This document shows positions 1 through 25,423 of a DNA stretch of 64,000 bases, piece after piece. The position numbers were made by a program, and so were the translations under genes. Source of the DNA: Schmidtea polychroa (taxonomy: Eukaryota); NCBI GenBank assembly GCA_044892525.1, contig CM097885.1, forward strand, positions 30,258,001 to 30,322,000, written 5' to 3'. Below the pieces are notes generated by a model, which was given only the letters and a program-made list of their open reading frames with translations, ran no database searches and was not told the origin of the DNA. Positions within the stretch are counted from its first letter, which is position 1. Every line of letters begins with the position of its first letter.

Positions 1-252
1 AAATATTATTTTTTAATAAATTAATAAGGTCTTTTTTCTTTAAATTATACTGAGTTAAATGATCCCTGTGTTGATGATAAAACTCCATGTATGTTACAGT
101 CTCGGGGTTCATACAAACAGGGCAAATAAAAAAGATGGTATGATTATGGCTATGCTTGTAATATTTTTCCATTATGAAATCACAATCATCATGTAAAGAA
201 CTATTACAATAATTTTGATATTTTGAGCCTGAATGAAATCAAAGGTTTAAGA

Positions 253-303
<51 letters not shown>

Positions 304-339
304 TATTATTATTATTCTTATTATTATTATTATTATTAC

Positions 340-412
<73 letters not shown>

Positions 413-512
413 GTTATTATTATTATTATTACTACTATTATTCTTATTCTTATTCTTATTCTTATTATTATTATTATGATTATTATTATTATTGTTATTA
501 TTATTATTATTA
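253..512. repeat. (TAT)n microsatellite
   Basis: Near-perfect trinucleotide run; it explains the poly-Y/poly-I ORFs. Confidence 0.98.
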
Positions 513-798
513 CTTCAATAAATAAATTATACATATATTTTTATCAAAAAGATAAATTGATTGTAAATATATTTAACCTATTACATAATAGTTTAAACAT
601 ACTTAATACAAAATAAATTATTGATGAAAATAAATTTAACCTGTTACATAATAGTTCATTATTATTATTATTCAAATATATTATAATTATTGTATTTAAA
701 GTATTAATTATTAAGTATTAAAATAAAAACATTTATAAATCCTTTAATAAAACCTTATAAAATCATTAAAAATCTTTAAATAATAATAAAAATCTTAC

Positions 799-1154
799 AT
801 TTAACTTTTCTTTTTGATATTTTGCAATCATTTTTTCCATATGCATTACTGTGCGCAATCAAATTGTTACCATTATTATTGTTATTTGTACTTGATTCAT
901 TCATATTTCGTCCATTTATGCTGCATCCATTCATGTTGTTTATAATAAAATCTAAAAAGAATAAATAATTATAAATTTAATAATAATAACGAAATACCAT
1001 TTGTCATGTTTTCAATGTTATTGTTAGAGCTTTTGTTGAAATTTCGATTAAGTCCTATAAATTATATCAATAATAATGACAAATAAATAAATAAATAAAT
1101 CTTACCATTCTTGACACTGTTTCCGCTTTGGCTTCCTTGATTATTTCTTGACAT
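799..1154 (-). CDS. Putative spliced Asn-rich small protein (exons 1154-1106, 1054-998, 951-799)
   Basis: ATG downstream of a TATA/Inr. Removing GT-AG introns of 51 and 46 bp (both phase 1) keeps the frame open: MSRNNQGSQSGNSVKN-GLNRNFNKSSNNNIENMTN-DFIINNMNGCSINGRN... A further GTAAG donor lies at 798. Confidence 0.55.
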
Positions 1155-1187
1155 TTTGTTGAGTTTAAAATTTTAGGTATATAATAA

Positions 1188-1330
1188 AAGTGATGGCATA
1201 TTTTTAAACATTGCTTTATATATCATAAATTGCGTAATATGTATTCACCCAATAGAAATTGAGAATATTACATGCACACGCACTGTGAAATATAATTTAC
1301 ACACACTGTGAAATACTTTTCACACATTGG
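1188..1330 (-). promoter_or_regulatory. Pol II-type promoter (TATA + Inr + CCAAT + short repeats)
   Basis: TATATAAAG at 1222-1214, TCACTT at 1193-1188 (~30 bp spacing), CCAAT at 1249-1253, CACTGTGAAATA at 1281 and 1304. Confidence 0.55.
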
Positions 1331-1471
1331 GAAGCAAAACTTACACACATTACAAAATAAAAATTTCACACAAACTAAGAGAACATGATATACATGCATT
1401 TAAACTGCAATCTTAATGCATATGAGTAATAACAAAATTAATAATAATATAATTTTTAATCAAAATCTTTA

Positions 1472-1875
1472 TTAATTTTTTAAATAATCTAACACAGCAA
1501 TTAAACAATTTTTGTAAGCACAATTAGAATGATCAGGGTAAGGACACAAGATATTATCAGGAAAATATTCTGATAATTGGAATGAATATTTTATTAATCT
1601 TAAATTTGGGAAATAATTTTTCAAAACTGTAAGTTTATCTTGATATAGAAAATTCCACTTGTATCTTCTACATCTCTCAACGAAATTCACCTTCATACCA
1701 TTCCAATCGATCTAAATTTTCATGTCCAGCTCAAAATGGTAAGTCATTAAATAACCAATACTTTGGGCGTAAAATATTATTTACATTCATAATACATAAT
1801 TCTTTAATAATTATTCCACCAGCATGATCATTATAACCAACAAAGTCAATAAAATAATAAGAGATTTTTATTAAT
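1472..1875 (-). pseudogene. Polinton-associated DEDD/RNase H-fold-like protein
   Basis: Manual translation gives YFIDFVGY...IIKELCI...LEWYEG, then a stop/frameshift into ORF 1472..1696 ending C-x4-H-x2-CA-x2-N. This pattern resembles a small conserved Polinton gene. Confidence 0.6.
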
Positions 1876-1879
1876 AAGA

Positions 1880-2245
1880 TTTATTAAACTACATCGTTTA
1901 TACATATAACATTGAATTTAACTATGCAAGGCAATGTTGACCACATGATTGAGTTATTGGATTTTGATAAAGAATTTTATTATACAGAAGGGCTTTACCA
2001 ATTGTTTGTAGTTTTGTTGTCATTATATCTGGATAATAATATCCCATCGGATCAAAAACATGTATTTTATCAGGTTTCACTTATATTGCAATCCAATGTT
2101 CTCCTCTAAGATTTGATGATTGAGTATTGACGACTATAGCTTGGTTTGCGTTCAGATCGGGGATTTTATCTAATGGGAATACACCAGTAAACTGATTCCC
2201 CAACAACATTTTTCTAATTCGATTAACCTGAATAGAACTAATCAA
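1880..2245 (-). pseudogene. Adenain-type cysteine protease (Polinton PRO)
   Basis: Minus-strand translation FTGVFPLDKIP...IVVNTQSSNLRGEHWIAI*...VFDPMG...YQNPITQSCGQHC shows the His/Asp/Gln/Cys motifs with internal stops. It is absent from the ORF track. Confidence 0.88.
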
Positions 2246-2344
2246 ATAAAATTAATTAGTAATTAAAAGCTTACTCCATAATAATTTGTTTCAATTGTTT
2301 AATTCATTTATACTACGTTTAAACCAATAATGTTTGAAATACTT

Positions 2345-3561
2345 TCAAACCAATACTGATCGACTTGCAGTAATTTGTAATTCTCTTTCGAAAACTCCGT
2401 ATACTATTACATAAACTCGAGTGATTTATTAAACTTTACACTCAATTTTAAATTTCCTTGTTGTGGTAATTGACTTTGATTCAAATCAAAATCTGGAGAC
2501 AAAACAAATATAAAGAATGGATATTTATCTTTAAAATCTTCAAGTGTTATCCCACAGTTCATGTTTTTATACAAATACCCCAGATTTCTCACAATACTTT
2601 GCATATACGTTGCAGTATAATCATTTGTGTCAAAGTTTTGTGTATATGTCTCTCGATAGTCACTATTTTTGGCTAAAGTGGTTGATGTAATATCCAAATG
2701 TTTAAAGACTGAGCTGGATTCCTTATATGTTCCCTTAAATTGAGATTCAGTTTGAAATGCCACTAAGACGAAATTTGGTAATCTTTTATCAATAAATAAT
2801 TGTTCCTTGTAAAATGATGATGAACCTTTACTGATTGTAAAGTTGACAGTTTCTTTACTTCTAATTGGATATATAGCATTTTAAGAATTTAACCCTATTT
2901 GATGCCCTGCTAAAACTGATGGTTCAACTCGAACTCTACGAATCATTGATTTTGCTTCCAATATCTTTATCTTTGGTTCATCTGTTAGCGAATGTATACT
3001 GAATGATGATAGGTTTCTTTTCATTGTTACATTAACATTAACTCCTGGAAGTAAATATTTTGATTGATCCATAAAATCTATTTTCAATGACGAACATAGG
3101 GAAACTTATTTAGAACCGGCAATTAATGCTGTTCTTTCGTTATCAGATGGAATATAACCCATAGGAGCCAGACAAATGTTTTTACTATCTCCATTATAAT
3201 TTAAAATAGTTTCAATTAAAGCTTTTTGTGTATATCTTCCGTTTCCACCTTCAATCTTTTGACTATTGAGTCCAACAATAACATCACTAAAAAGTGTATG
3301 GAACAAGTAATTGTTAGCTTTTGCATCTGAAGTAACCGGCAATTCCGTTCCATTATTATTTGTAACCTTTAATTTAATGTAGAGTAATGTATCATTCAAA
3401 TCGAGATATTCAGTATGAGAACCAGTTATCTTGAATTCAATATCGCTTTTATTATCAACAATTGAATTAAATGGGAATACGTCTTCAAATGTCGCATATT
3501 CTATAACCGCCTGAGGAGTCGGTCGATCAAAAATACATAATTCAGTTTTTCCACAAATCAT
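2345..3561 (-). pseudogene. Major capsid protein (double jelly-roll), fragmented
   Basis: KTELCIFDRPTPQAVIE...IEFKITG...YLDLNDTLLYIKLKV, then QSKYLLPGV, then GNLKLSVKF...VYGVFERELQIT across ORFs 3106..3561, 2881..3087 and 2407..2763. Confidence 0.9.
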
Positions 3562-3945
3562 TTTTCGAATATAGAAGGACGTCCTGTCATTCGTTTGTTT
3601 ATATACCTTCGATGTTTTCTTCGCTTAGGCTGTGGTTCAGACTCATCAGATTCTGACGTTTCATTTGATCCCATTACATTTGGTAATGAAGAAATCACAT
3701 CTGGTAATGCCTCTTTGAATTCAGATATGGCATTAGATTTTAAAGATAGTAATATTTTTGCATTATTCATTATTACATTTTTAGCTGTTTTCATACCAAA
3801 ATTTCTTATACGTTTAAGAATAGAGAAGAGCAAACCGACCAATAGTTTTTAACCATCCAGATCCATATTGTTTGCCAACAAAATAGGGTAATTCGCCACC
3901 AGTTTGACTATTGGCATAAAGAGAAACTATATCAGGATTAGACAT
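3558..3945 (-). pseudogene. Small virion core-type protein (adintovirus 'gasderminX'-like), frameshifted
   Basis: Reconstructed N-terminus YANSQTGGELPYFVGKQYGSGWLKTIGRFAL with QxGG/QxGxG motifs, a basic C-terminus, and a position between the minor and major capsid genes. Confidence 0.65.
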
Positions 3946-4957
3946 CTTGTTTTCTAAAATGTAAAGTTACGTGTGTTTTTGAACCGTTTGCAAATCGGAT
4001 TAAGTTTCCACTATCATCGCGTATATTAATTTCTTTATTGTTTATACATGTTCTCCCAACTGGTAAATACATAGGATTTTCTATTTGTATTTGCACAACT
4101 TCATCTTGCTCATATTTCTTAATCCACACCTCTTTCAGAAGAGGGACCAGTGAATCACCAACATTTATCGGATCAATAATATCGTTATAGATGAACATTT
4201 GTTGATGGTGATTAAATATTTTTCCTTTACGAACTCCACCAAATTGTTTGTCATTATATAATTGTTTTTGTAATCCAAATGTGTTGACCAAGTTTTTATC
4301 AAATATAACTTCTTTAATGTTTTCACCGAGACTGAATTTGAAGACATTTTCATTCAGTTCAACAGACTTGAAAATATGGGGGCAATTATTTGTTAAATAG
4401 TTGGTTAAATCTTCAAGCTTCTTTATGTATAAATCATCAGTAAATGTGAAAACTGAATCTTGTAAACAATTGTATGTTAACTTCATTCTAATTACATTAT
4501 TCATAATGCCATCAACATACGGCGGAATTACAATTTGAAATGTATCAGTGTGACTTATAATTGTTGGTTCAGGAACTCCTAATCTTTTTACGCTTGCTGC
4601 ATCTTCAAATGTTATCTTGAATGGATGGTAATCGCAACAAATATTTAAAACTCCCTTGGTAATATACATGTAACAATCATTATTTAATTCTTTTATTGGC
4701 ATTTCATCATCTTCGGGTTCAATAACATAAAAGCTGCTAACTGATTTCGGTACAATTTCTTTATATTCAATCTTAGAATTACTGTAAAATGGAAATGTAT
4801 TGTACACAAATGTGTAATCAAGCAAAGCAACTTCCCACATGTCATGCAGGTAAATGGGATTTTGTAACTCAACGATAAATTTACTAGCCTCATTATTCGG
4901 ATGAATTAATGGACAGCTATTGCTTGGTAAAATAGTGCAAAAACTGTTTCTATTCAT
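3938..4957 (-). CDS. Minor capsid protein (penton)
   Basis: N-terminal ILPSNS...WEVALLD and C-terminal IYNDIIDP..VGDSLVPLL...IRDDSG..IRF...VTLHFR motifs; uninterrupted 339 aa. Confidence 0.88.
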   Translation of the reverse strand: MNRNSFCTILPSNSCPLIHPNNEASKFIVELQNPIYLHDMWEVALLDYTFVYNTFPFYSNSKIEYKEIVPKSVSSFYVIEPEDDEMPIKELNNDCYMYITKGVLNICCDYHPFKITFEDAASVKRLGVPEPTIISHTDTFQIVIPPYVDGIMNNVIRMKLTYNCLQDSVFTFTDDLYIKKLEDLTNYLTNNCPHIFKSVELNENVFKFSLGENIKEVIFDKNLVNTFGLQKQLYNDKQFGGVRKGKIFNHHQQMFIYNDIIDPINVGDSLVPLLKEVWIKKYEQDEVVQIQIENPMYLPVGRTCINNKEINIRDDSGNLIRFANGSKTHVTLHFRKQDV

Positions 4958-5990
4958 TCAATTTGAGATGCTGATATCCAAGTTGGGTTTTGATATCCAT
5001 GCCATTTGACGTAATATTGTTTATCCTTACCTTTATATTTTGATTTAAGAATTTTGTCAATTCTAAAGACAGATGGTGTCGGAATAACTTGCAGTTCCTG
5101 TTCGTAAAATTTACCCTGGATTTTATTATTATCAATATCTTTAATAACATACATAACGGACTCTGTTTCGTATTAATCTTCAATATTTGAAAGACTTCGT
5201 CACTCCAGTTGTTGTCAAAATTTTTAATGAATGGTGAAGCCGATATTTTACTTATTCTAACATGATCACCAACTTTATATTTAGGTTTTTTAATTTTTGT
5301 TACATCTTGTTGTGATAATAATATTTTCATACTATTTTTAGATGTTACATCAATCGGTCTCATATCCTTTAGACCTCCATGTTCGGAATGATAGTAACTA
5401 TGAATTATTTTCGGTAAAACATTTATCCAAGTTTTGTTACCTCGATGTGCAAAATATTTTTTCAATCGATCTCTTAATGTTTTATTAAACCTTTCCACAT
5501 GAGCAGCTTTGAATTGTGAAAAAAACAGAGTAATGATTTATTCCCTTTAGATTTTCTTTAACTTTACTATTATAAAATTCTTTGCCCAAATCAGTTTGTA
5601 AATTATCTGGTTTACCATTTTTAAACATTGTTTTTATTGCAACAGCCATTTCACTAGCAGATTTAGTTTTCAATGGTATAGCTCGAGCAAATCTACTAAA
5701 GACATCAATACATGTCAAAATATATTTGTAACCCTTATTAATTTTAGAAAATGGAATCATTTCCATTAAATCCATTGGCCATAAATCATTAATACCATAT
5801 GTTTTATATGCTCTTGTGGGAAACCGTTTCAACATTGGGTTGTTTAAACTGTATGCCAGTTGACTCGACAACCATTTTTGAGTCTCCTTTTTTGATTTGG
5901 GTACTTTTTTCTTTAACTTTTCGACTCCACCGAAACCGGCCGGATCTTTTGGGTTTGTCCATATCTTCTCAATTACAACACGATGATTTA
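4954..5990 (-). pseudogene. Retroviral-like DDE integrase with C-terminal chromodomain-like region, frameshifted
   Basis: PAGFGGVEKL; WPMDLMEM...YILTCIDVFSRFA; LQTDLGKEF; AAHVERFNKTL; YYVKWHGY. Split over three ORFs. Confidence 0.93.
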
Positions 5991-6071
5991 AAATTTAGAA
6001 TAAGGTTTGGTAAATGTCCCATAGGTAATTGACCCATTGTTTATGATGATGATATTAAAATAATTCAACGT

Positions 6072-6403
6072 TTATGAAGGCACACCTAATAAACCAGATC
6101 CACCTAATAAAGATAATGCGATTGGTATCAAAGCTGATATAAACCCCCTCGCTGTTTGTATATAATTTTTCGCATTATCCGTTTATTTTTTGTATTTACT
6201 AACGATAAAAATGATTTTTTATGGTTTTGCAATACAAGTTTTTTCGCTTTACTAATGTCAACATTGCCACGCACAACATTAACAATAATATCAAGCAAAT
6301 TGTCCACAACAAATTGTGGGAATGACTGTAAAATACTTCTTCTTTTCATGAGTGGTGCTTTTATCAATGCATTAAAATATGGTATACTACGTTGTAATTT
6401 CAT
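6072..6403 (-). pseudogene. Small basic Polinton core-like protein, frameshifted near C-terminus
   Basis: NVVRGNVDI..AKK..L..HKK...IIYKQRGG, then shifted FISALIPIALSLLGG. This is typical of the small gene beside the Polinton ATPase. Confidence 0.7.
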
Positions 6404-6629
6404 TATTGAAATTTATTTTTTATCGTTTAATTTTGTTTATAATTTAATCCATTTTTAGGTGTTTTGATTGATCTTTTCATCAACTTTTTCTTTACAGAAT
6501 TCTTTACTATCTTTTTTACAGATTTCTTTACATGTTTCTTTACACGTTTCTTGACATTATTCACTTTGACTAATTGATTATCATATTTAATTAAAACTTT
6601 CTTGAACCCAATTTTTTATTATAATAGAT

Positions 6630-7259
6630 TCATAATTTAATTTTGTTTATAAACTGTTTACCATCTTTATTAAAAATATCTGTCCTAATACGTACATCAT
6701 CCATGCATTGTTGAGTAAAATCAAAGAATAAATATCCATGGGGTATTTTGGTTGCATCTTGAAATGATTCAATTAGAAAGTTACGATTGTTTGGATATGC
6801 TTGTCTTGCAATGAAATCAATAACAGTTGCATCCCTCGGATTTTTGAAAATAACGAGATATTTAACATTCAAGTTCCGAGTTCGATGACTCCCACCCTGA
6901 TGAAACAGATTTTGTGTTATAAAAATAACTGTTACACCTTGATGTCGAGATATTTTTGTAAATAAATTATTAAAATCTTTTTCTTTGTTAGCTTCTTGAT
7001 ATAAATCATCAATAATAATTACATCACCCTGTTGTAATCTAGATGACCAGTTTTTATCAAATCCTTTTATTATTGTCATTTTTAATTTACAGAATTGTTC
7101 TTGCGTCAAACCATGTTCGTCATCAGCACCCCTATGCCAATATATTTTATTGAATTTTGACTTGAACATTTTTGATTGTAATAATTTACAAACAAATAAA
7201 GTTTTACCGCTACCGCTTGGACCTAGAATTTGATAAACAGCATCATTTCTTAATTCCAT
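6630..7259 (-). CDS. DNA-packaging ATPase (FtsK-HerA/A32-like)
   Basis: Walker A GPSGSGKT, Walker B VIIIDD, SRH..VTVIFITQNLF, FKNPRD, PHGYLFFD. Confidence 0.93.
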   Translation of the reverse strand: MELRNDAVYQILGPSGSGKTLFVCKLLQSKMFKSKFNKIYWHRGADDEHGLTQEQFCKLKMTIIKGFDKNWSSRLQQGDVIIIDDLYQEANKEKDFNNLFTKISRHQGVTVIFITQNLFHQGGSHRTRNLNVKYLVIFKNPRDATVIDFIARQAYPNNRNFLIESFQDATKIPHGYLFFDFTQQCMDDVRIRTDIFNKDGKQFINKIKL

Positions 7260-7342
7260 TTTAAAAAATTATTTATATATTAATATTGTTTATATTTGTT
7301 TTAATTCATCAGTTTACTTGATGAAAAATTATTTGAAAAAAT

Positions 7343-7777
7343 ATGATTAGTAATATAAATTATAAAGGTAGATTTGATGTATCTCATATGGAATTTCCAA
7401 AAGGTAAACCACAACAAATTGTTGACAGAAGTGGTAAACATTCAATAATATTTTTCAAGTCAGGTAAATGTCGAATAATGGGATGTAAAAAATCGATCAA
7501 AGTTGAAGATTTAAAATATGAAATCAAGGATTTACAAATTCAATCAATTACAGTTACTGCTGATATTGAATCAAATGTTATTTTAAATGATTTATCAAAG
7601 TATATGAAATGTATTTACGAACCAGAAATATTTCCGGCATTAAGATATATAAAATACAATCCAATATGTGTTAACATATTCAATAGTGGTAAAGTAGTTA
7701 TACTCGGTATAAAGACATTGGATTATCATTTACTTGTTTATAAAATTATTAAAGATATCAGTAAATTAAATCAGTAA
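7343..7777 (+). CDS. Element-encoded TBP-like protein (divergent, shortened)
   Basis: Two TBP-type repeats: IIFFKSGKCRIMGCK and YEPEIFPALRY...VNIFNSGKVVILGIK (compare TBP LIFSSGKMVCTGAK and YEPELFPGLIY...LIFVSGKVVLTGAK). Confidence 0.88.
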   Translation: MISNINYKGRFDVSHMEFPKGKPQQIVDRSGKHSIIFFKSGKCRIMGCKKSIKVEDLKYEIKDLQIQSITVTADIESNVILNDLSKYMKCIYEPEIFPALRYIKYNPICVNIFNSGKVVILGIKTLDYHLLVYKIIKDISKLNQ

Positions 7778-7843: not shown

Positions 7844-8239
7844 TTGGTTGATGGTGTGTATCGAAATAAGAATATATACAATAACACTTTAATCATTTAT
7901 TTAGTAATATTTGAGAATGTCAAATTTAACTGTAAATGGTATATTTTGATTATTGCTTTTTATATTTATAATTTTAAATGTTTTAGAAAAAAAGATACAG
8001 ATTCTGATTGGGAAAATGGGGAGTTATATCCGAATATTTTAAAGAATCTAATCTATTGGGCACCAGAGATTATTCCATTCAGAATATGGATGTCTACCGG
8101 AATAGATTTGAATGTGGTCTTATTTGATCACTTGAGGACGTTAGAAGACGATCTTGACCCTGTTGACAGCCGCAAGCCATCAGTATGCCCATACAAATAC
8201 GAAGGATGTGTTGATAGAGAGAAGAAGTATAATATATGA
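7844..8239 (+). CDS. Hypothetical Polinton accessory protein (5' part uncertain)
   Basis: Coding-like composition from ~7987; a possible 48-bp GT-AG intron lies at 7939-7986; no recognised motif. Confidence 0.35.
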   Translation: MVDGVYRNKNIYNNTLIIYLVIFENVKFNCKWYILIIAFYIYNFKCFRKKDTDSDWENGELYPNILKNLIYWAPEIIPFRIWMSTGIDLNVVLFDHLRTLEDDLDPVDSRKPSVCPYKYEGCVDREKKYNI

Positions 8240-8473
8240 ATATAAGGAAAAAATTGAGAAAAGCTGACTTTTCATTAATTGTAGATTACTAATAAATGTT
8301 TAGTTATTATAATACAGTGTTTTCTAATTTATATTGTTACTTGTGATAGTACACTATTTTTATATTACATGTATAAAATTAATTATATAATTTTAATATC
8401 ACACTAATTAGTACACGTTTTAATTAACTAATTTGCAATACATCTGCAATACATATGCAAACCATGTATGACT

Positions 8474-8630: not shown

Positions 8631-8780
8631 ATTTTTAAAAATGCAATCCAAGAAGAACGTTTTTGGTGAGAAAACATTTTCTAATTTATTGAAAGAAACA
8701 AGCCCAATTAAAAAAATAACTGAGACGAAAAAGCATGCCATTCTTAGCATGCCAAGAATGATGTGAAACCAGTACAAATG

Positions 8781-9774
8781 TGAAGAAGTTGATGCTTATC
8801 CACTATCCTAAAAAGAATTATATAATTCATTGGAGACTTCTCCAGCTTTATCTAAATATTGGGGTAAAGGTCACTAAGATTCATCGCGCTATACAAAATT
8901 ATATAGATACTAACACACAACTTAGGGCATCATCAATAAACACATTAGATAAAAATTATTTTAAACTATTAAACAATAGTCTATACGGTAAGACTGTCGA
9001 AAACCTAAAGAAACGAATTAATTTAAAACTTTGCAATTCAGCCCAAAAGGTTTTAACATATTGTTCTAAACCTAATTTCAAAAGGACTACTAAAATCAAT
9101 GACGACTTAATATCTGTTCTATTAAGTAAAGAATTAATATGTTTAAATAGACCAAGTTATATTGGTCAATCAGTTTTGGATTTATCAAAACTTCGTATGT
9201 ACCAACTTCAGTACATTAATTTAGAAAAATATCGTATAGAATTTAATTGTAAAATTAATATAGTCGCCGGGGATACAGATTCCTTCTTCTTAGAAATTAA
9301 AAATTGCAAATTAAATTCTCTTTTACCAGCAATGATAAGGGATAATTTATTAGATACCCCTAATTATGAGCCAACGCATTCATTATATTTAAAAAACCTT
9401 GACTCTGTAATAGGGAAATTTAAAGATGAAAGCAAGGGTATGATGAATGGATATTTTTAAGACCAAAATGTTATAGCATGAAAGGTAGTAAGGGATGTAT
9501 GAAAGCGAAGGGAGTCACAATGAAAGATACTGGACTAAATCATCAGTCGTATCTGAATTGTTATAATAATATTGAGATTTATACGGTACCACAATTTAGG
9601 ATAACGAGTAAAAATCATCAACTTTTCAGTATTAAAAATAATAAGAGGGCTTTAACTAATGCTGACGATAAGCGCAATTGGGTACTTAAAAATAAAAGTT
9701 ATGCGTATGGTCATTATAGGGGGATGGTATGGTTATGGCTGATGATTCTGATGAAGAAATTTTGCTGCCAATAG
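8781..9774 (+). pseudogene. Protein-primed family B DNA polymerase, C-terminal half only
   Basis: KLLNNSLYGKTVEN, GDTDS, IGKFKDE, frameshift to LRPKCYS..KAKGV, DDKR, YAYGHY. The exonuclease and motif A regions are absent. Confidence 0.93.
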
Positions 9775-9967
9775 TTGATCCAAATGCAGATTTGCTATAT
9801 CATCCTCATTTTCCGAATGATGATGGTTGTCAATTAATAAATTTTATGATAAAAAAAATATGTTTTCATTCTATTTTTAAGCGTTACAAAATTTTTATTT
9901 TGTTACTTGTGATTGTACACTATTTTTATGTTATAGTATTTTTATGTTACTTGTTATAGTCAATCAG

Positions 9968-10422
9968 TTTTTTGTGAGAAAACATTTTCTAATTTATTGA
10001 AATAAACAAGCCCAATTAAGAAAATAACTAAGACGAAGCATGCCAAGAATGATGTGAAACCAGTACAAATGTATCATAACCATAAGATATATTTCTTGGT
10101 AGACGAAATTTCATATAAATTCTCAAATGCAGTCAAATTGATCAAGTCGCAATATTAAAGTTTCATTGCTCATATAACAAAAGAAGATGTTGTTGCAGTA
10201 AATAAAGTGTTGGGGAAAATCAATAAGAATCTAAGTTGCAATGGAAATATAATCATCAACAATCGAAATTCCCGTTTTCATGATGCCTTTGAAAAAATTG
10301 AATATAAAGATTGGGAAAGCTGGTTTGTAAATATTTCAATACAAGGATATAAAATGGATGATAAAGATGTCATATCACCGATTTGGAGATTAGATAGTGC
10401 TCGAATTTCTCTGGGATTTTAA
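9968..10422 (+). pseudogene. Polinton accessory gene of unknown function (its 5' end is duplicated at 8641-8780)
   Basis: 9968-10071 repeats 8659-8780; the reading continues through one stop into ORF 10207..10422. Confidence 0.5.
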
Positions 10423-10789
10423 TAAATGTTTAGTTTTTAATACATCTTTTAATGTGTGTTTTAATATAATTTTTTACTATCATAATGAGTTTTCTTAAGT
10501 ATAGATGAATAATTTGGATTTTTAAAAAGTTGAAAATACGTCTGTATGTAAAATTTGGCTGAAAAAGACATTTTTTAAGGTGTTATGATTATGACTTTGA
10601 AGTAAATAATGATGTCATTTTGTAGAGATTAAAATTCTATCTATATATTGTTTGAATGAAAATATCTCAATTTGTTTAAAAAGATGTGTGAATTCAAAAA
10701 TGGTGTACTAAAAATGAAATTTCAGATTTTTGATTACGTCATAGTCTCATAGTATATTGACATAAAAATTCTTATAAAAAAATTAAAAT

Positions 10790-10991
10790 GTATGATGTAA
10801 TCAACGATTTAAAAGTTTTTTAAAATTATTACATAGTCGACGATTTAAACAATTTAAAATAATATGTAATCAATGATTAAAACAAAATTTAATTATTATG
10901 TAATCGATAGTTAAAAAAAAATTAAAATTAAAAAAAAGTAAGGGGGTCTTTGTGGAGGGGTCTGGATCTGGAGTGCATATAACTACCTACT
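10790..10991 (-). repeat. Probable right terminus/TIR of the Polinton
   Basis: The minus strand starts AGTAGGTAGTT, followed by a GC-rich patch and ~35-bp imperfect subterminal repeats (ATGTAATCAACGATTTAAAA-like). The partner TIR is not seen in the window. Confidence 0.55.
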
Positions 10992-11922: not shown

Positions 11923-12729
11923 ATGATAAATATTAATGATAAATATAAACACATTCAAACCCTTCAGTCATCAACAAAAAGTGAAGTATATATTGCTGAA
12001 AATAATTCCCAGAACAATAAAAGGAACAAAACTGTAGTGATTAAAAGAATCCACAAATCTGAAAATAGATTATTTGCACAGAATCCAAATTATCCATTTC
12101 GTATTCCACTGGAAATGCATTTTAATCAATTAATTAATGATGATGAAATTTGCCCTAAGATTCTTGATTTCTTTCAAGACGACAAAGAATTTTCAATTGT
12201 TATGGAGCATTTGACCGGTAAATGGGCTGAACTAGGGGAATACATTATGGAGAAAAAGCGACAAGAAAGATGTGTTAAAAGAATTGCAGAAAATGTAATA
12301 ATTGCCATTGAAAAATTAATCGATAAAGGCATTTATCATCTCGATATCAAACCTAGAAATATATTTGTAAATAAAACAACATATCAGGTAAAGATTATTG
12401 ATTATGAAGACGCTCTCTTTGATAATGTGATGAAGTACCCTAAAACTAACAGTTATGCTGGAACAGTTGGATATTGCAGTCCGGAGGTATTACTTCGTCA
12501 AACATTTGATGTGAACAAAAGTGTTGTATTCATGTTAGGCGCTCTAATTTACAAATGCATGGAAAGAAAACATCCATATCTATTAAAAAACAATTTCTAC
12601 ATTAAGGATATAATATTTTATAGGTCTTCAGAAACATTACAAAAGTTAGTTAACAAATGTCTGGATTATAATCCTACAAATAGAATGACCATAAATGAAA
12701 TACGCAATGACATTTGGTTTCAATCTTAA
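11923..12729 (+). CDS. Intronless Ser/Thr protein kinase, PIM-like, atypical motifs
   Basis: VVIK, RIPLEM, HLDIKPRN, IIDYED, GTVGYCSPE, C-terminal PTNR. Confidence 0.85.
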   Translation: MININDKYKHIQTLQSSTKSEVYIAENNSQNNKRNKTVVIKRIHKSENRLFAQNPNYPFRIPLEMHFNQLINDDEICPKILDFFQDDKEFSIVMEHLTGKWAELGEYIMEKKRQERCVKRIAENVIIAIEKLIDKGIYHLDIKPRNIFVNKTTYQVKIIDYEDALFDNVMKYPKTNSYAGTVGYCSPEVLLRQTFDVNKSVVFMLGALIYKCMERKHPYLLKNNFYIKDIIFYRSSETLQKLVNKCLDYNPTNRMTINEIRNDIWFQS

Positions 12730-24151: not shown

Positions 24152-25423
24152 ATGAAAAATTTAAAGAACCTTTCCTCGATAGAAAAGATGAGTGCTGAAT
24201 ATCTTCAACGACTTATCGGTCGGGAATACTTCGTCGCAATCATTTTTGTAACCGTTCTTCTGACAATCGTCAGCATTACTGGGTTGATTGGAAATTATTT
24301 CGTAATTGTTGTTTTCAGTAAACATATTAAACAAGCAGTTTCGAATTTGTTTATCACATTTTTGGCTATTATTGACATGATCATTTGCGTAATCGATATC
24401 CCAATGACCCTGTATCTTGTGGTTTGGCAAAAGAATTCAGTTGACATCGTATGTAAACTCCACATAAGTCTTAAAGCTTTTTGTGTACCTGTGTCGGCTT
24501 TAATTTTAGTAATGATAGCCGTTGATAGATTCCTTATTATATGTTTCATTCCCAGTATTTTGATCCGAAAAACGTCTGCTGTAATTATATTATTATTAGT
24601 ATTTTTGTCAGGTATCGTTCTCGCTGTACCAATGGGTATTCATACTGGAATAAAAACCTTCTTCAAAACTTCCATAAAAGATGTTTTGATGCCACCGTTG
24701 TCGAAAGATTCAAATGATACGGTTTATATGTACAAAGTCAACTATAATGACATAGAAAGGCCCATGCAGAGACACCTTTTCAAATCCGGTAGTTGTGACA
24801 TAGATCAAACGTACATTAGTAAACTAAATTTTTCATATTACAAAATGGCATTATTTGTTCTTTTTACATTTCTCATGGTTTTGATTATCGTATTCTATTC
24901 GATAATTTTCATTTTTCTTTGGTCAAAGCACCAGAAAATGAAATCGTATAAAAACTCAAATAATCGAAAAAACCAAAAAGAAACATCGATAACGCTTTCT
25001 TCCAATCTTCTAAGAATGAGAAGTTTAAACAAACGGAAGAGCTCTTACAAACATTCAGTTGACATTGATGAGCCTAGTCTCAGTTATTCGTCAAATCTGA
25101 AACGACAACACAGCCATCGAAGAAGGAAACCCCATGTCAAAACCGCTTACACGTTAGCTCTAATAGCAGCCGCATTTATCGTTTCTTATTTGCCGTATTT
25201 GTTGATCAGTAATGACTTTATTCTACCCATTAGAATGACTAGACCCTTCAACAACCACCAACAAGTTCTCACTGATAAATATCTTTATTATTTTCGGCAA
25301 ATTCTATTTTACTTTTACTTTTTAAACAGCGCAATAAACCCAATTATTTATTCAGCTACCAATAACCAATTCAAATCGGACGTACGGAAAATGGGAATCG
25401 TGAAATGGTTTTTTAAAACGTAA
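24152..25423 (+). CDS. Class A (rhodopsin-like) GPCR, probably a peptide receptor; single coding exon
   Basis: Seven hydrophobic segments; GN in TM1, LAIID in TM2, IAVDRF, SYLPY in TM6, NSAINPIIY in TM7. Confidence 0.95.
   Translation: MKNLKNLSSIEKMSAEYLQRLIGREYFVAIIFVTVLLTIVSITGLIGNYFVIVVFSKHIKQAVSNLFITFLAIIDMIICVIDIPMTLYLVVWQKNSVDIVCKLHISLKAFCVPVSALILVMIAVDRFLIICFIPSILIRKTSAVIILLLVFLSGIVLAVPMGIHTGIKTFFKTSIKDVLMPPLSKDSNDTVYMYKVNYNDIERPMQRHLFKSGSCDIDQTYISKLNFSYYKMALFVLFTFLMVLIIVFYSIIFIFLWSKHQKMKSYKNSNNRKNQKETSITLSSNLLRMRSLNKRKSSYKHSVDIDEPSLSYSSNLKRQHSHRRRKPHVKTAYTLALIAAAFIVSYLPYLLISNDFILPIRMTRPFNNHQQVLTDKYLYYFRQILFYFYFLNSAINPIIYSATNNQFKSDVRKMGIVKWFFKT

Follow-up and report, generated by a model that had tools for sequence, protein, structure and literature searches.

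Organization of the element

The window analysed here is a 64 000-nucleotide stretch of the Schmidtea polychroa genome that opens inside a Polinton. The element extends over 15.7 kb, from G000:C1 30253253 to window position 10991, and has the ends AGTAG...CTACT. Four sister elements (15.0 kb, 99.4–99.5% alike) have AGTAG ends and a 6 bp target-site duplication (TSD; 4/4), and a terminal inverted repeat (TIR) of about 1.45 kb was found in at least two of them. Identity between the window copy and the four sisters is about 95%. Its ends are present with no matching TSD, and it is a dead copy, with breaks in the genes for the polymerase, the integrase, the protease and the capsid.

The genes and boxes from position 1 to 7293 lie on the minus strand. 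The 5' end of the polymerase B gene occupies positions 1–172; the remainder (in pieces) and the left terminus precede the window, from G000:C1 30253253. The whole polymerase ORF (1303–1305 residues) is present in three sisters and lies in eight pieces in the window copy; PF03175, the protein-primed polymerase B family, was matched in a relative with an E value of 4e-19. A broken conserved ORF of 139–165 residues without an assigned function (1472–1865) is preceded by an ATAAAC box (1896–1901) and adjoins a broken adenain-like cysteine protease gene (1901–2209), identified on a sister by PF00770 (Peptidase_C5) above the cut-off. The double jelly-roll (DJR) major capsid protein (MCP) gene (2345–3561) is broken by two stops and one frameshift and has an ATAAAC box 41 nt before its ATG (3597–3602). 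No Pfam match to the MCP was obtained with hmmscan; the assignment was made through the sister protein, whose nearest Atlas clusters (0.98) carry the DJR family PF21738 in 15% and 65% of their members.

A small conserved ORF before the capsid gene (3558–3945) is broken, as judged by comparison with the sisters. It is followed by a putative minor capsid gene (3938–4957; no Pfam match) with an ATAAAC box 67 nt before it (5019–5024). We presume from its position that this gene encodes the minor capsid protein, and the core label used below is presumed likewise. Some subfamilies carry a tandem duplication of the putative minor capsid gene (L126:5541-7575, L043:5616-7687, L177 and L183). The rve integrase gene with a chromodomain (4954–5973) is in three pieces with two stops; the retroviral-type integrase family PF00665 was matched above the cut-off by the window fragment and by a sister. 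Two ATAAAC boxes (6039–6075) lie ahead of the integrase gene and of a tiny ORF (about 5980–6036) that starts with Met-Gly and ends with Cys-Cys. This ORF, which precedes the integrase gene with its own box in several subfamilies, possibly encodes a lipid-modified virion peptide.

A gene for a small basic protein, putatively of the virion core (6128–6403), is truncated (110 residues in the sisters); the protein matches Adeno_PX weakly and below the cut-off (E = 0.08). One ATAAAC box is located 37 nt before this gene (6435–6440) and another within the 3' end of the ATPase gene, ahead of the small basic ORF (6645–6650). The A32-like packaging ATPase (6630–7259; PF04665, Pox_A32, above the cut-off) is unlike the sisters in its last residues, and the first base of its ATAAAC box (7288–7293) is 34 nt before the ATG. 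The TBP-like gene (7343–7777, plus strand) lies head-to-head with the ATPase gene across a divergent intergenic region of 83 bp (7260–7342), an arrangement already described in the first-pass annotation of this DNA.

Also on the plus strand are a broken Cys-containing ORF of 100–115 residues without an assigned function (8018–8272), the 5' remnant of an SSB-like gene (8641–8780), an inverted duplicate of the 3' part of the polymerase gene (8744–9851) and a further SSB-like remnant (9961–10422). The right TIR (8768–10991) has grown in the window copy to take in the polymerase 3' part, and it closes with CTACT at 10991. The 157-residue protein of the terminal-repeat gene of a sister was modelled as an OB fold like those of T7 gp2.5 and the Enc34 SSB; its top three matches were a phage DUF2815 protein and the Enc34 and T7 SSBs, with a middling score (Z = 7.1–7.3). 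Since the SSB-like gene lies inside the TIR, the sisters carry two copies.

With a protein-primed polymerase B (pPolB), an integrase, an A32 ATPase, an adenain, a DJR capsid, TIRs and, in the sisters, a TSD, the element is a Polinton/Maverick. Beyond it, the window contains an intronless protein kinase ORF of 268 residues 0.9 kb past the right end (11923–12729, plus strand; Pfam E = 5e-32) and an intronless rhodopsin-family GPCR of 423 residues (24152–25423, plus strand).

Fold and state of the TBP-like protein

The TBP-like ORF encodes 144 residues from ATG to stop. It matched the Pfam TBP family PF00352 with 57.2 bits (cut-off 22.9, E = 1.6e-15) over residues 64–134, and its PDB sequence matches were TBP or TBP-containing chains in 35 of 35 cases. 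An AlphaFold2 model of the natural sister L003 (154 residues, 96% identical to the window ORF) was built on 76 family rows and had a pLDDT of 95.6. This model was aligned to TBP using VIA-align with a Z score of 12.6 and an r.m.s.d. of 2.5 Å over 143 residues; with Foldseek, ranks 1–44 among the matches listed were TBP chains. The two-lobed saddle and the PF00352 match place the protein in the TBP superfamily; it is a TBP homolog. Both TBP repeats claimed at first reading are borne out by the saddle of the sister model, so the absence of a TBP fold, which would have disposed of that reading, does not apply.

The C-terminal repeat is near canonical as described, with YEPE and both C-lobe Phe residues present. 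The description of the N-terminal repeat was correct for the FKSGK Phe, which is present, and for the first Phe, which is missing; its helices, reported as shortened, are essentially deleted. The L003 model keeps the N-lobe strands, but ahead of residue 81 none of its helices reaches a length of four residues.

The ORF had also been called uninterrupted. It is present, but relative to the sisters a small insertion shifts the frame after codon 139, the last five residues are foreign, the product ends 10 residues early and about 10 residues are missing from the final helix. A length of 154 residues is encoded by 29/29 other best-scoring copies. The window-versus-sister dN/dS of the gene is 0.36–0.47, on few changes. 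The window copy is decaying, inside a dead element.

Conserved residues

The TFIIB glutamates are conserved among the 76 family rows (E93 in 73, E95 in 75), as are three intercalating Phe residues (F38 in 75, F97 in 76, F113 in 76). Three of the canonical four Phe are kept; the first N-lobe Phe is absent family-wide. Two forms were distinguished by alignment: one of 165–175 residues, which keeps the N-lobe helices and is without the first Phe, and one of 145–155 residues, which has lost the helices. Canonical helices H1 and H2 are absent from the short form by model and alignment, and are present in the long form by alignment.

Eight positions of the DNA face are changed: N6 (75 of the 76 rows), R44 (75), M46 (76), S68 (75), T70 (70), R101 (75), C109 (76) and N111 (76). 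In yeast numbering, we take these to include V71>N, V122>R, T124>M, N159>S and V161>T. The yeast residues aligned with R101, C109 and N111 are I194, V203 and L205 (I194>R, V203>C, L205>N); according to the excerpted text of PMC1636458, from which this numbering comes, mutation at these positions changes TATA specificity and all three are altered in TBPm3. The same excerpt assigns contacts with the 3' half of the box to the N-lobe. The DNA face is re-set to a conserved, more polar set and is not degenerate.

The N-lobe binds TFIIA, TAF1, Brf1/2, Mot1 and NC2, and the C-lobe glutamate pair contacts TFIIB, as stated in the excerpted text of PMC7221094. No TFIIB Pfam match was obtained among 18 element proteins, and the 157-residue neighbour is an OB fold; the failure to detect a TFIIB among these proteins would point to that of the host.

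Distribution, selection and phylogeny

In the genome search, 150 of 4,150 first-look candidates were scored and 150/150 matched with 65–100% identity; these are matches and not copy numbers. The first-pass annotation had proposed a tBLASTn-type search for copies adjoining a Polinton ATPase, and 29 of the 30 best copies are head-to-head with one, the remaining copy being rearranged. Five subfamilies in the genome share 58–68% identity. The dN/dS of the TBP-like gene, the calculation of which had likewise been suggested, is 0.07–0.23 across them (11 of 14 between-subfamily pairs, three being saturated); the figures are NG86 values, and ML dS was saturated. The capsid gene gave a similar range (0.11–0.22, NG86). 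These ratios indicate purifying selection on the TBP-like family.

Beyond the S. polychroa genome, 88 homologs with 39–66% identity were found, and 60 clusters at 50% identity scored below an E value of 1e-30. Of the 68 metagenome loci of the TBP clade, 37 include a core gene of Polintons; at a further 17 the Polinton genes are accessory ones alone, and the last 14, on contigs 1.0–3.1 kb long, have no Polinton gene. For contigs of at least 5 kb, a core gene is present in 13/15. The place of the TBP-like gene within the element varies among the metagenome loci. Ten regions of the S. polychroa genome were compared; eight have the virion genes of this type and all eight have the TBP-like gene, the other two having the polymerase only. 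On these comparisons the gene is a mark of an entire Polinton lineage and is not peculiar to the window element.

A tree was calculated with LG+G4 without a mixture from 49 of 93 rows (redundant and context-free rows were removed; no named NCLDV TBP or TRF2 was among them). A single branch (100/100) unites 28 Polinton-type rows and separates them from the host paralogs and from eukaryotic and archaeal TBPs; its stem of 1.24 makes long-branch effects possible. In an AU test on 35 rows, a clade of the copies from this genome with the host TBP paralogs was rejected (p-AU = 1e-73).

This rejection disposes of the grouping with host TBP that would have marked the gene as a one-off retrocopy. We give practically no credence to a host retrocopy or to a chance ORF without function: the frameshift of the window copy, its place in a dead element and its window-versus-sister dN/dS fit such an origin, but the 150 genome matches, the 88 homologs, the Polinton context of the metagenome loci, the selection on the family, the tree and the AU test all speak against it. 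The retrocopy reading is refuted for the family and holds only as the decay of the window copy.

The host itself has a TBP family of at least seven loci (L141–L146 and L148; G000 C1, C2 and C4): a canonical locus, two paralogs with introns and four divergent loci, which are 30–41% identical to a canonical TBP and some of which are intronless. Intronless, near-identical TFIIB-like genes of about 300 residues gave 13 matches in two clusters (L197–L199; G000:C3 38.2–39.1 Mb and C1 23.8–24.2 Mb), with no Polinton gene within three 10 kb stretches checked. The host also has duplicated TFIIB and Brf-like genes; introns split the relevant repeat of the host TFIIB gene.

The ATAAAC box

Upstream regions of homologous genes were taken from five own-genome and 31 metagenome loci, and the box was sought on the sense strand. 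Start codons for these regions were picked automatically, and some are wrong. At 25–50 nt before the ATPase ATG the box was present in 24 of 25 regions (dinucleotide shuffles: mean 0.75, maximum 4), with a spacing of 31–40 nt in 21 of the 24. Over the same interval it precedes 11/14 core-like, 8/14 MCP and 10/18 minor capsid genes and 6/8 of the 139-residue ORFs. It is missing or more distant in the case of the protease gene (0/6), the small pre-capsid ORF (1/11) and the integrase gene (1/20, or 8/20 at 20–70 nt), and was not found before TBP-like (0/35), SSB (0/6) or polymerase (0/5) genes. Pooled at 25–60 nt, ATAAAC occurs in 68 of 99 regions compared with 0/46 regions of TBP, SSB and polymerase genes. 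The same 99 regions contained no ATAAATA and ATAAAA in only six cases, which argues that the C of the box is selected.

A canonical TATA was found before 11/35 TBP-like genes (shuffle mean 1.44) and 3/6 SSB genes; before the TBP-like gene of the window's subfamily there was none in the 70 nt examined. Between elements, the sequences on either side of the box show no relationship (median identity 0.33, with three of 300 pairs above 0.7). Immediately before the box stands a C at 15 of 17 sites in the long-form TBP subclade and a T at 42 of the 51 other sites, a co-variation that rests on two subclades differing in GC content too. The MCP box sits in one frame in nine of ten cases, so protein constraint may contribute there. 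We read the 8 bp site, (T/C)ATAAACA, as a TATA box whose seventh position is C; this position falls in the half expected to be contacted by the remodelled N-lobe.

The forkhead consensus is RYAAAYA, and ATAAACA conforms to it. The box also often overlaps the end of the upstream gene, as a polyadenylation signal might, and an SSB gene adjoins the TBP-like gene in many loci, which would suit another DNA role for the protein, for example at the termini in replication. That the box is a forkhead site or polyadenylation signal, with the protein acting elsewhere on DNA, nevertheless seems very improbable. GTAAACA and AATAAAC each occur in 1/99 regions and the reverse orientation in 0/99, upstream of the own-genome ATPase box there is no gene on the same strand for it to terminate, and the spacing from the ATG is tight. 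Both readings of the box are disfavoured by the near absence of these variants among the 99 regions.

Elements with other gene contents were examined for the box. In the S. polychroa genome, neither a TBP-like frame (E values up to 10) nor a box upstream of any ORF was found in a second family of Polintons. L103, a Polinton with a different TBP, has no ATAAAC box. At the six IMG/VR integrase loci examined, the available DNA showed no TBP-like frame, and the interval of 25–60 nt no box. No close relative without the TBP gene was found; IMG/VR scans with the ATPase and capsid (four weak loci were left aside) and a GTDB scan gave no usable Polinton. The box-less controls are all distant and mostly partial contigs, so co-occurrence is inseparable from shared ancestry, and at the level of sequence the link between gene and box is a correlation over few lineages.

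The second family (L163–L165; G000:C1 63.60–63.62 Mb) is 15 kb long and has at least 98 capsid matches at 99–100%; in several of its genes the ATG follows a CATTTT word and a run of A. The TBP of L103 (L103:3332-4192), a metagenomic Polinton, is full length, near canonical and outside the clade, and likely represents a second, independent TBP capture. An IMG/VR contig (L031:9803-10351) carries a full-length TBP of 182 residues with TATATA-rich upstream regions and no Polinton genes.

Proposed function

We consider it probable, on sequence and model, that the TBP-like protein is an altered-specificity initiation factor for the virion genes that works from the box through the TFIIB and RNA polymerase II of the host and does not respond to the N-lobe regulators. 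The protein would be made first, from a host-type promoter, and would bind through its saddle to the ATAAAC box about 35 nt before the genes of the virion module. Box-bound protein would then hand over to host TFIIB and RNA polymerase II, and would escape TFIIA, TAF1, Mot1 and Brf1 because their binding surface on the N-lobe is gone. Such a scheme would give an early/late switch to an element without its own polymerase, comparable to the vTBP/TATT system of herpesviruses although relying on a single small protein, 'early' and 'late' being labels of this analysis; the binding, recruitment and timing are inferred.

Some observations count against this scheme. A clean TATA precedes only about a third of the TBP-like genes, and cellular TBP can itself make weak use of TATAAAC as a TATA. 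In Table 4 of PMC10005294, TATAAACG gave 27% of the activity of TATAAATA with cellular TBP, and by its title PDB entry 1qn3 is a C(-25) TATA variant crystallized with wild-type TBP.

Host TBP or a paralog might read the box as a weak TATA, the element protein acting elsewhere as a TFIIB decoy or as a modulator of host transcription. The tolerance of cellular TBP for C at position 7, the seven host TBP-family loci, several of them divergent, and the kept TFIIB glutamates fit this explanation, which we judge unlikely. A TATA read by the host would not require the C that is selected in the box, the CATAAAC form departs twice from TATA, and a pure TFIIB sink needs no near-invariant new residues on its DNA face. 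The first-pass annotation had offered both an initiation factor for the virion block and a TFIIB decoy; the first gains support from the box and the conserved, altered DNA face, and the second is weakened.

The same DNA-face and box evidence would fit a protein that binds the box and represses, keeping the virion genes silent in the integrated state, and the lost TFIIA and TAF surfaces could yield a non-productive complex. We hold repression to be quite improbable: the near-universal retention of the TFIIB glutamates argues against it, as does the core-promoter position of the box before genes that are mostly without a canonical TATA to block.

Taking the TBP-like protein as an initiation factor, the broader proposal is that this widespread lineage needs only one captured protein for an early/late cascade: a TBP reduced to a saddle that recruits TFIIB and is proof against regulators, its altered DNA face having evolved together with an ATAAAC core promoter private to the lineage. 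This would be a natural orthogonal TBP/promoter pair on host RNA polymerase II and the smallest viral late-transcription system described, independent of that of the herpesviruses. We regard this proposal as evenly balanced between true and false.

The proposal bears on how Polintons control their genes and on whether the integrated state switches to particle-making; a conserved capsid-gene promoter with its own dedicated factor would speak for a virion phase that is regulated. With a factor, a candidate site and a split between gene sets, the system is testable in vitro, for instance by comparing the preferences of the TBP-like protein and host TBP on TATAAACA, CATAAACA and TATAAAAG. The series from full TBP to helix-less TBP would show which parts of TBP suffice for initiation, and a TBP and box whose specificity has been altered in nature might be put to use as an orthogonal tool for transcription.

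Comparison with known systems

Among viruses, NCLDVs, poxviruses and herpesviruses are known to have TBP-like factors. We found no prior description of a lineage-wide reduced TBP or of the ATAAAC box. In the Polinton/Maverick literature searched for TBP, TATA, TFIIB and promoters, the only mention was a 'TBP' label in Starrett et al. (2021); figures, supplements and Repbase may name the gene. The main text of Jeong et al. (PMC10748475) gave no matches for TBP, TATA or promoter, and PMC12220804 gave term matches in its references only. The label of Starrett et al. stands undiscussed in the legend to their Fig. 5, no TBP label occurs in the extracted text of their Fig. S2 adintovirus maps, and the parts of the article consulted propose no promoter or function for TBP (PMC8502044).

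The element shares pPolB, integrase, A32 ATPase, adenain, DJR capsid, TIRs and a 6 bp TSD with the Polintons, adintoviruses and MELD viruses, as these are described in the consulted parts of Starrett et al. (2021; PMC8502044). With cellular and archaeal TBP (PF00352; PDB entries 2z8u, 7egb_P and 1cdw) the Polinton protein has in common the two-lobed saddle, the EPE of the C-lobe stirrup, three Phe residues and the equivalent of N69. It differs from them in being about 30 residues shorter, in the loss of the N-lobe helices and first Phe and in the replacement of eight DNA-face positions by a conserved, mostly polar set, and is 23–29% identical to them.

NCLDVs carry their own RNA polymerase, whereas neither a TFIIB nor an RNA polymerase was detected in the 15 kb Polintons. 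Foldseek matched the Polinton protein to NCLDV TBP-like proteins with E values of 1e-8 to 1e-3. The N-lobe regulator surface has diverged in these proteins also, and most viral TBPs vary at the TFIIB glutamates, the first of which is kept in about 40%, and pair with a viral TFIIB, according to the excerpted text of Ravarani et al. (2020; PMC7221094).

The vTBPs of beta- and gammaherpesviruses (KSHV ORF24, HCMV UL87) resemble the Polinton protein in being TBP-like factors with a polar DNA face that work with host RNA polymerase II, as outlined in the excerpted text of PMC12529657. There, vTBP reads TATTWAA late promoters; in both systems a TATA variant stands before virion genes (TATT versus ATAAAC) and conventional promoters serve other genes. 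ORF24 is described in the same excerpt as a large protein that binds RNA polymerase II directly within a six-protein complex. In the Polinton protein, which aligns to the TBP core over its whole length, the additional polymerase-binding and C-terminal domains of herpesvirus vTBP are absent. Compared with ORF24, it is a bare TBP core of 144–170 residues with the TFIIB glutamates, far closer to cellular TBP.
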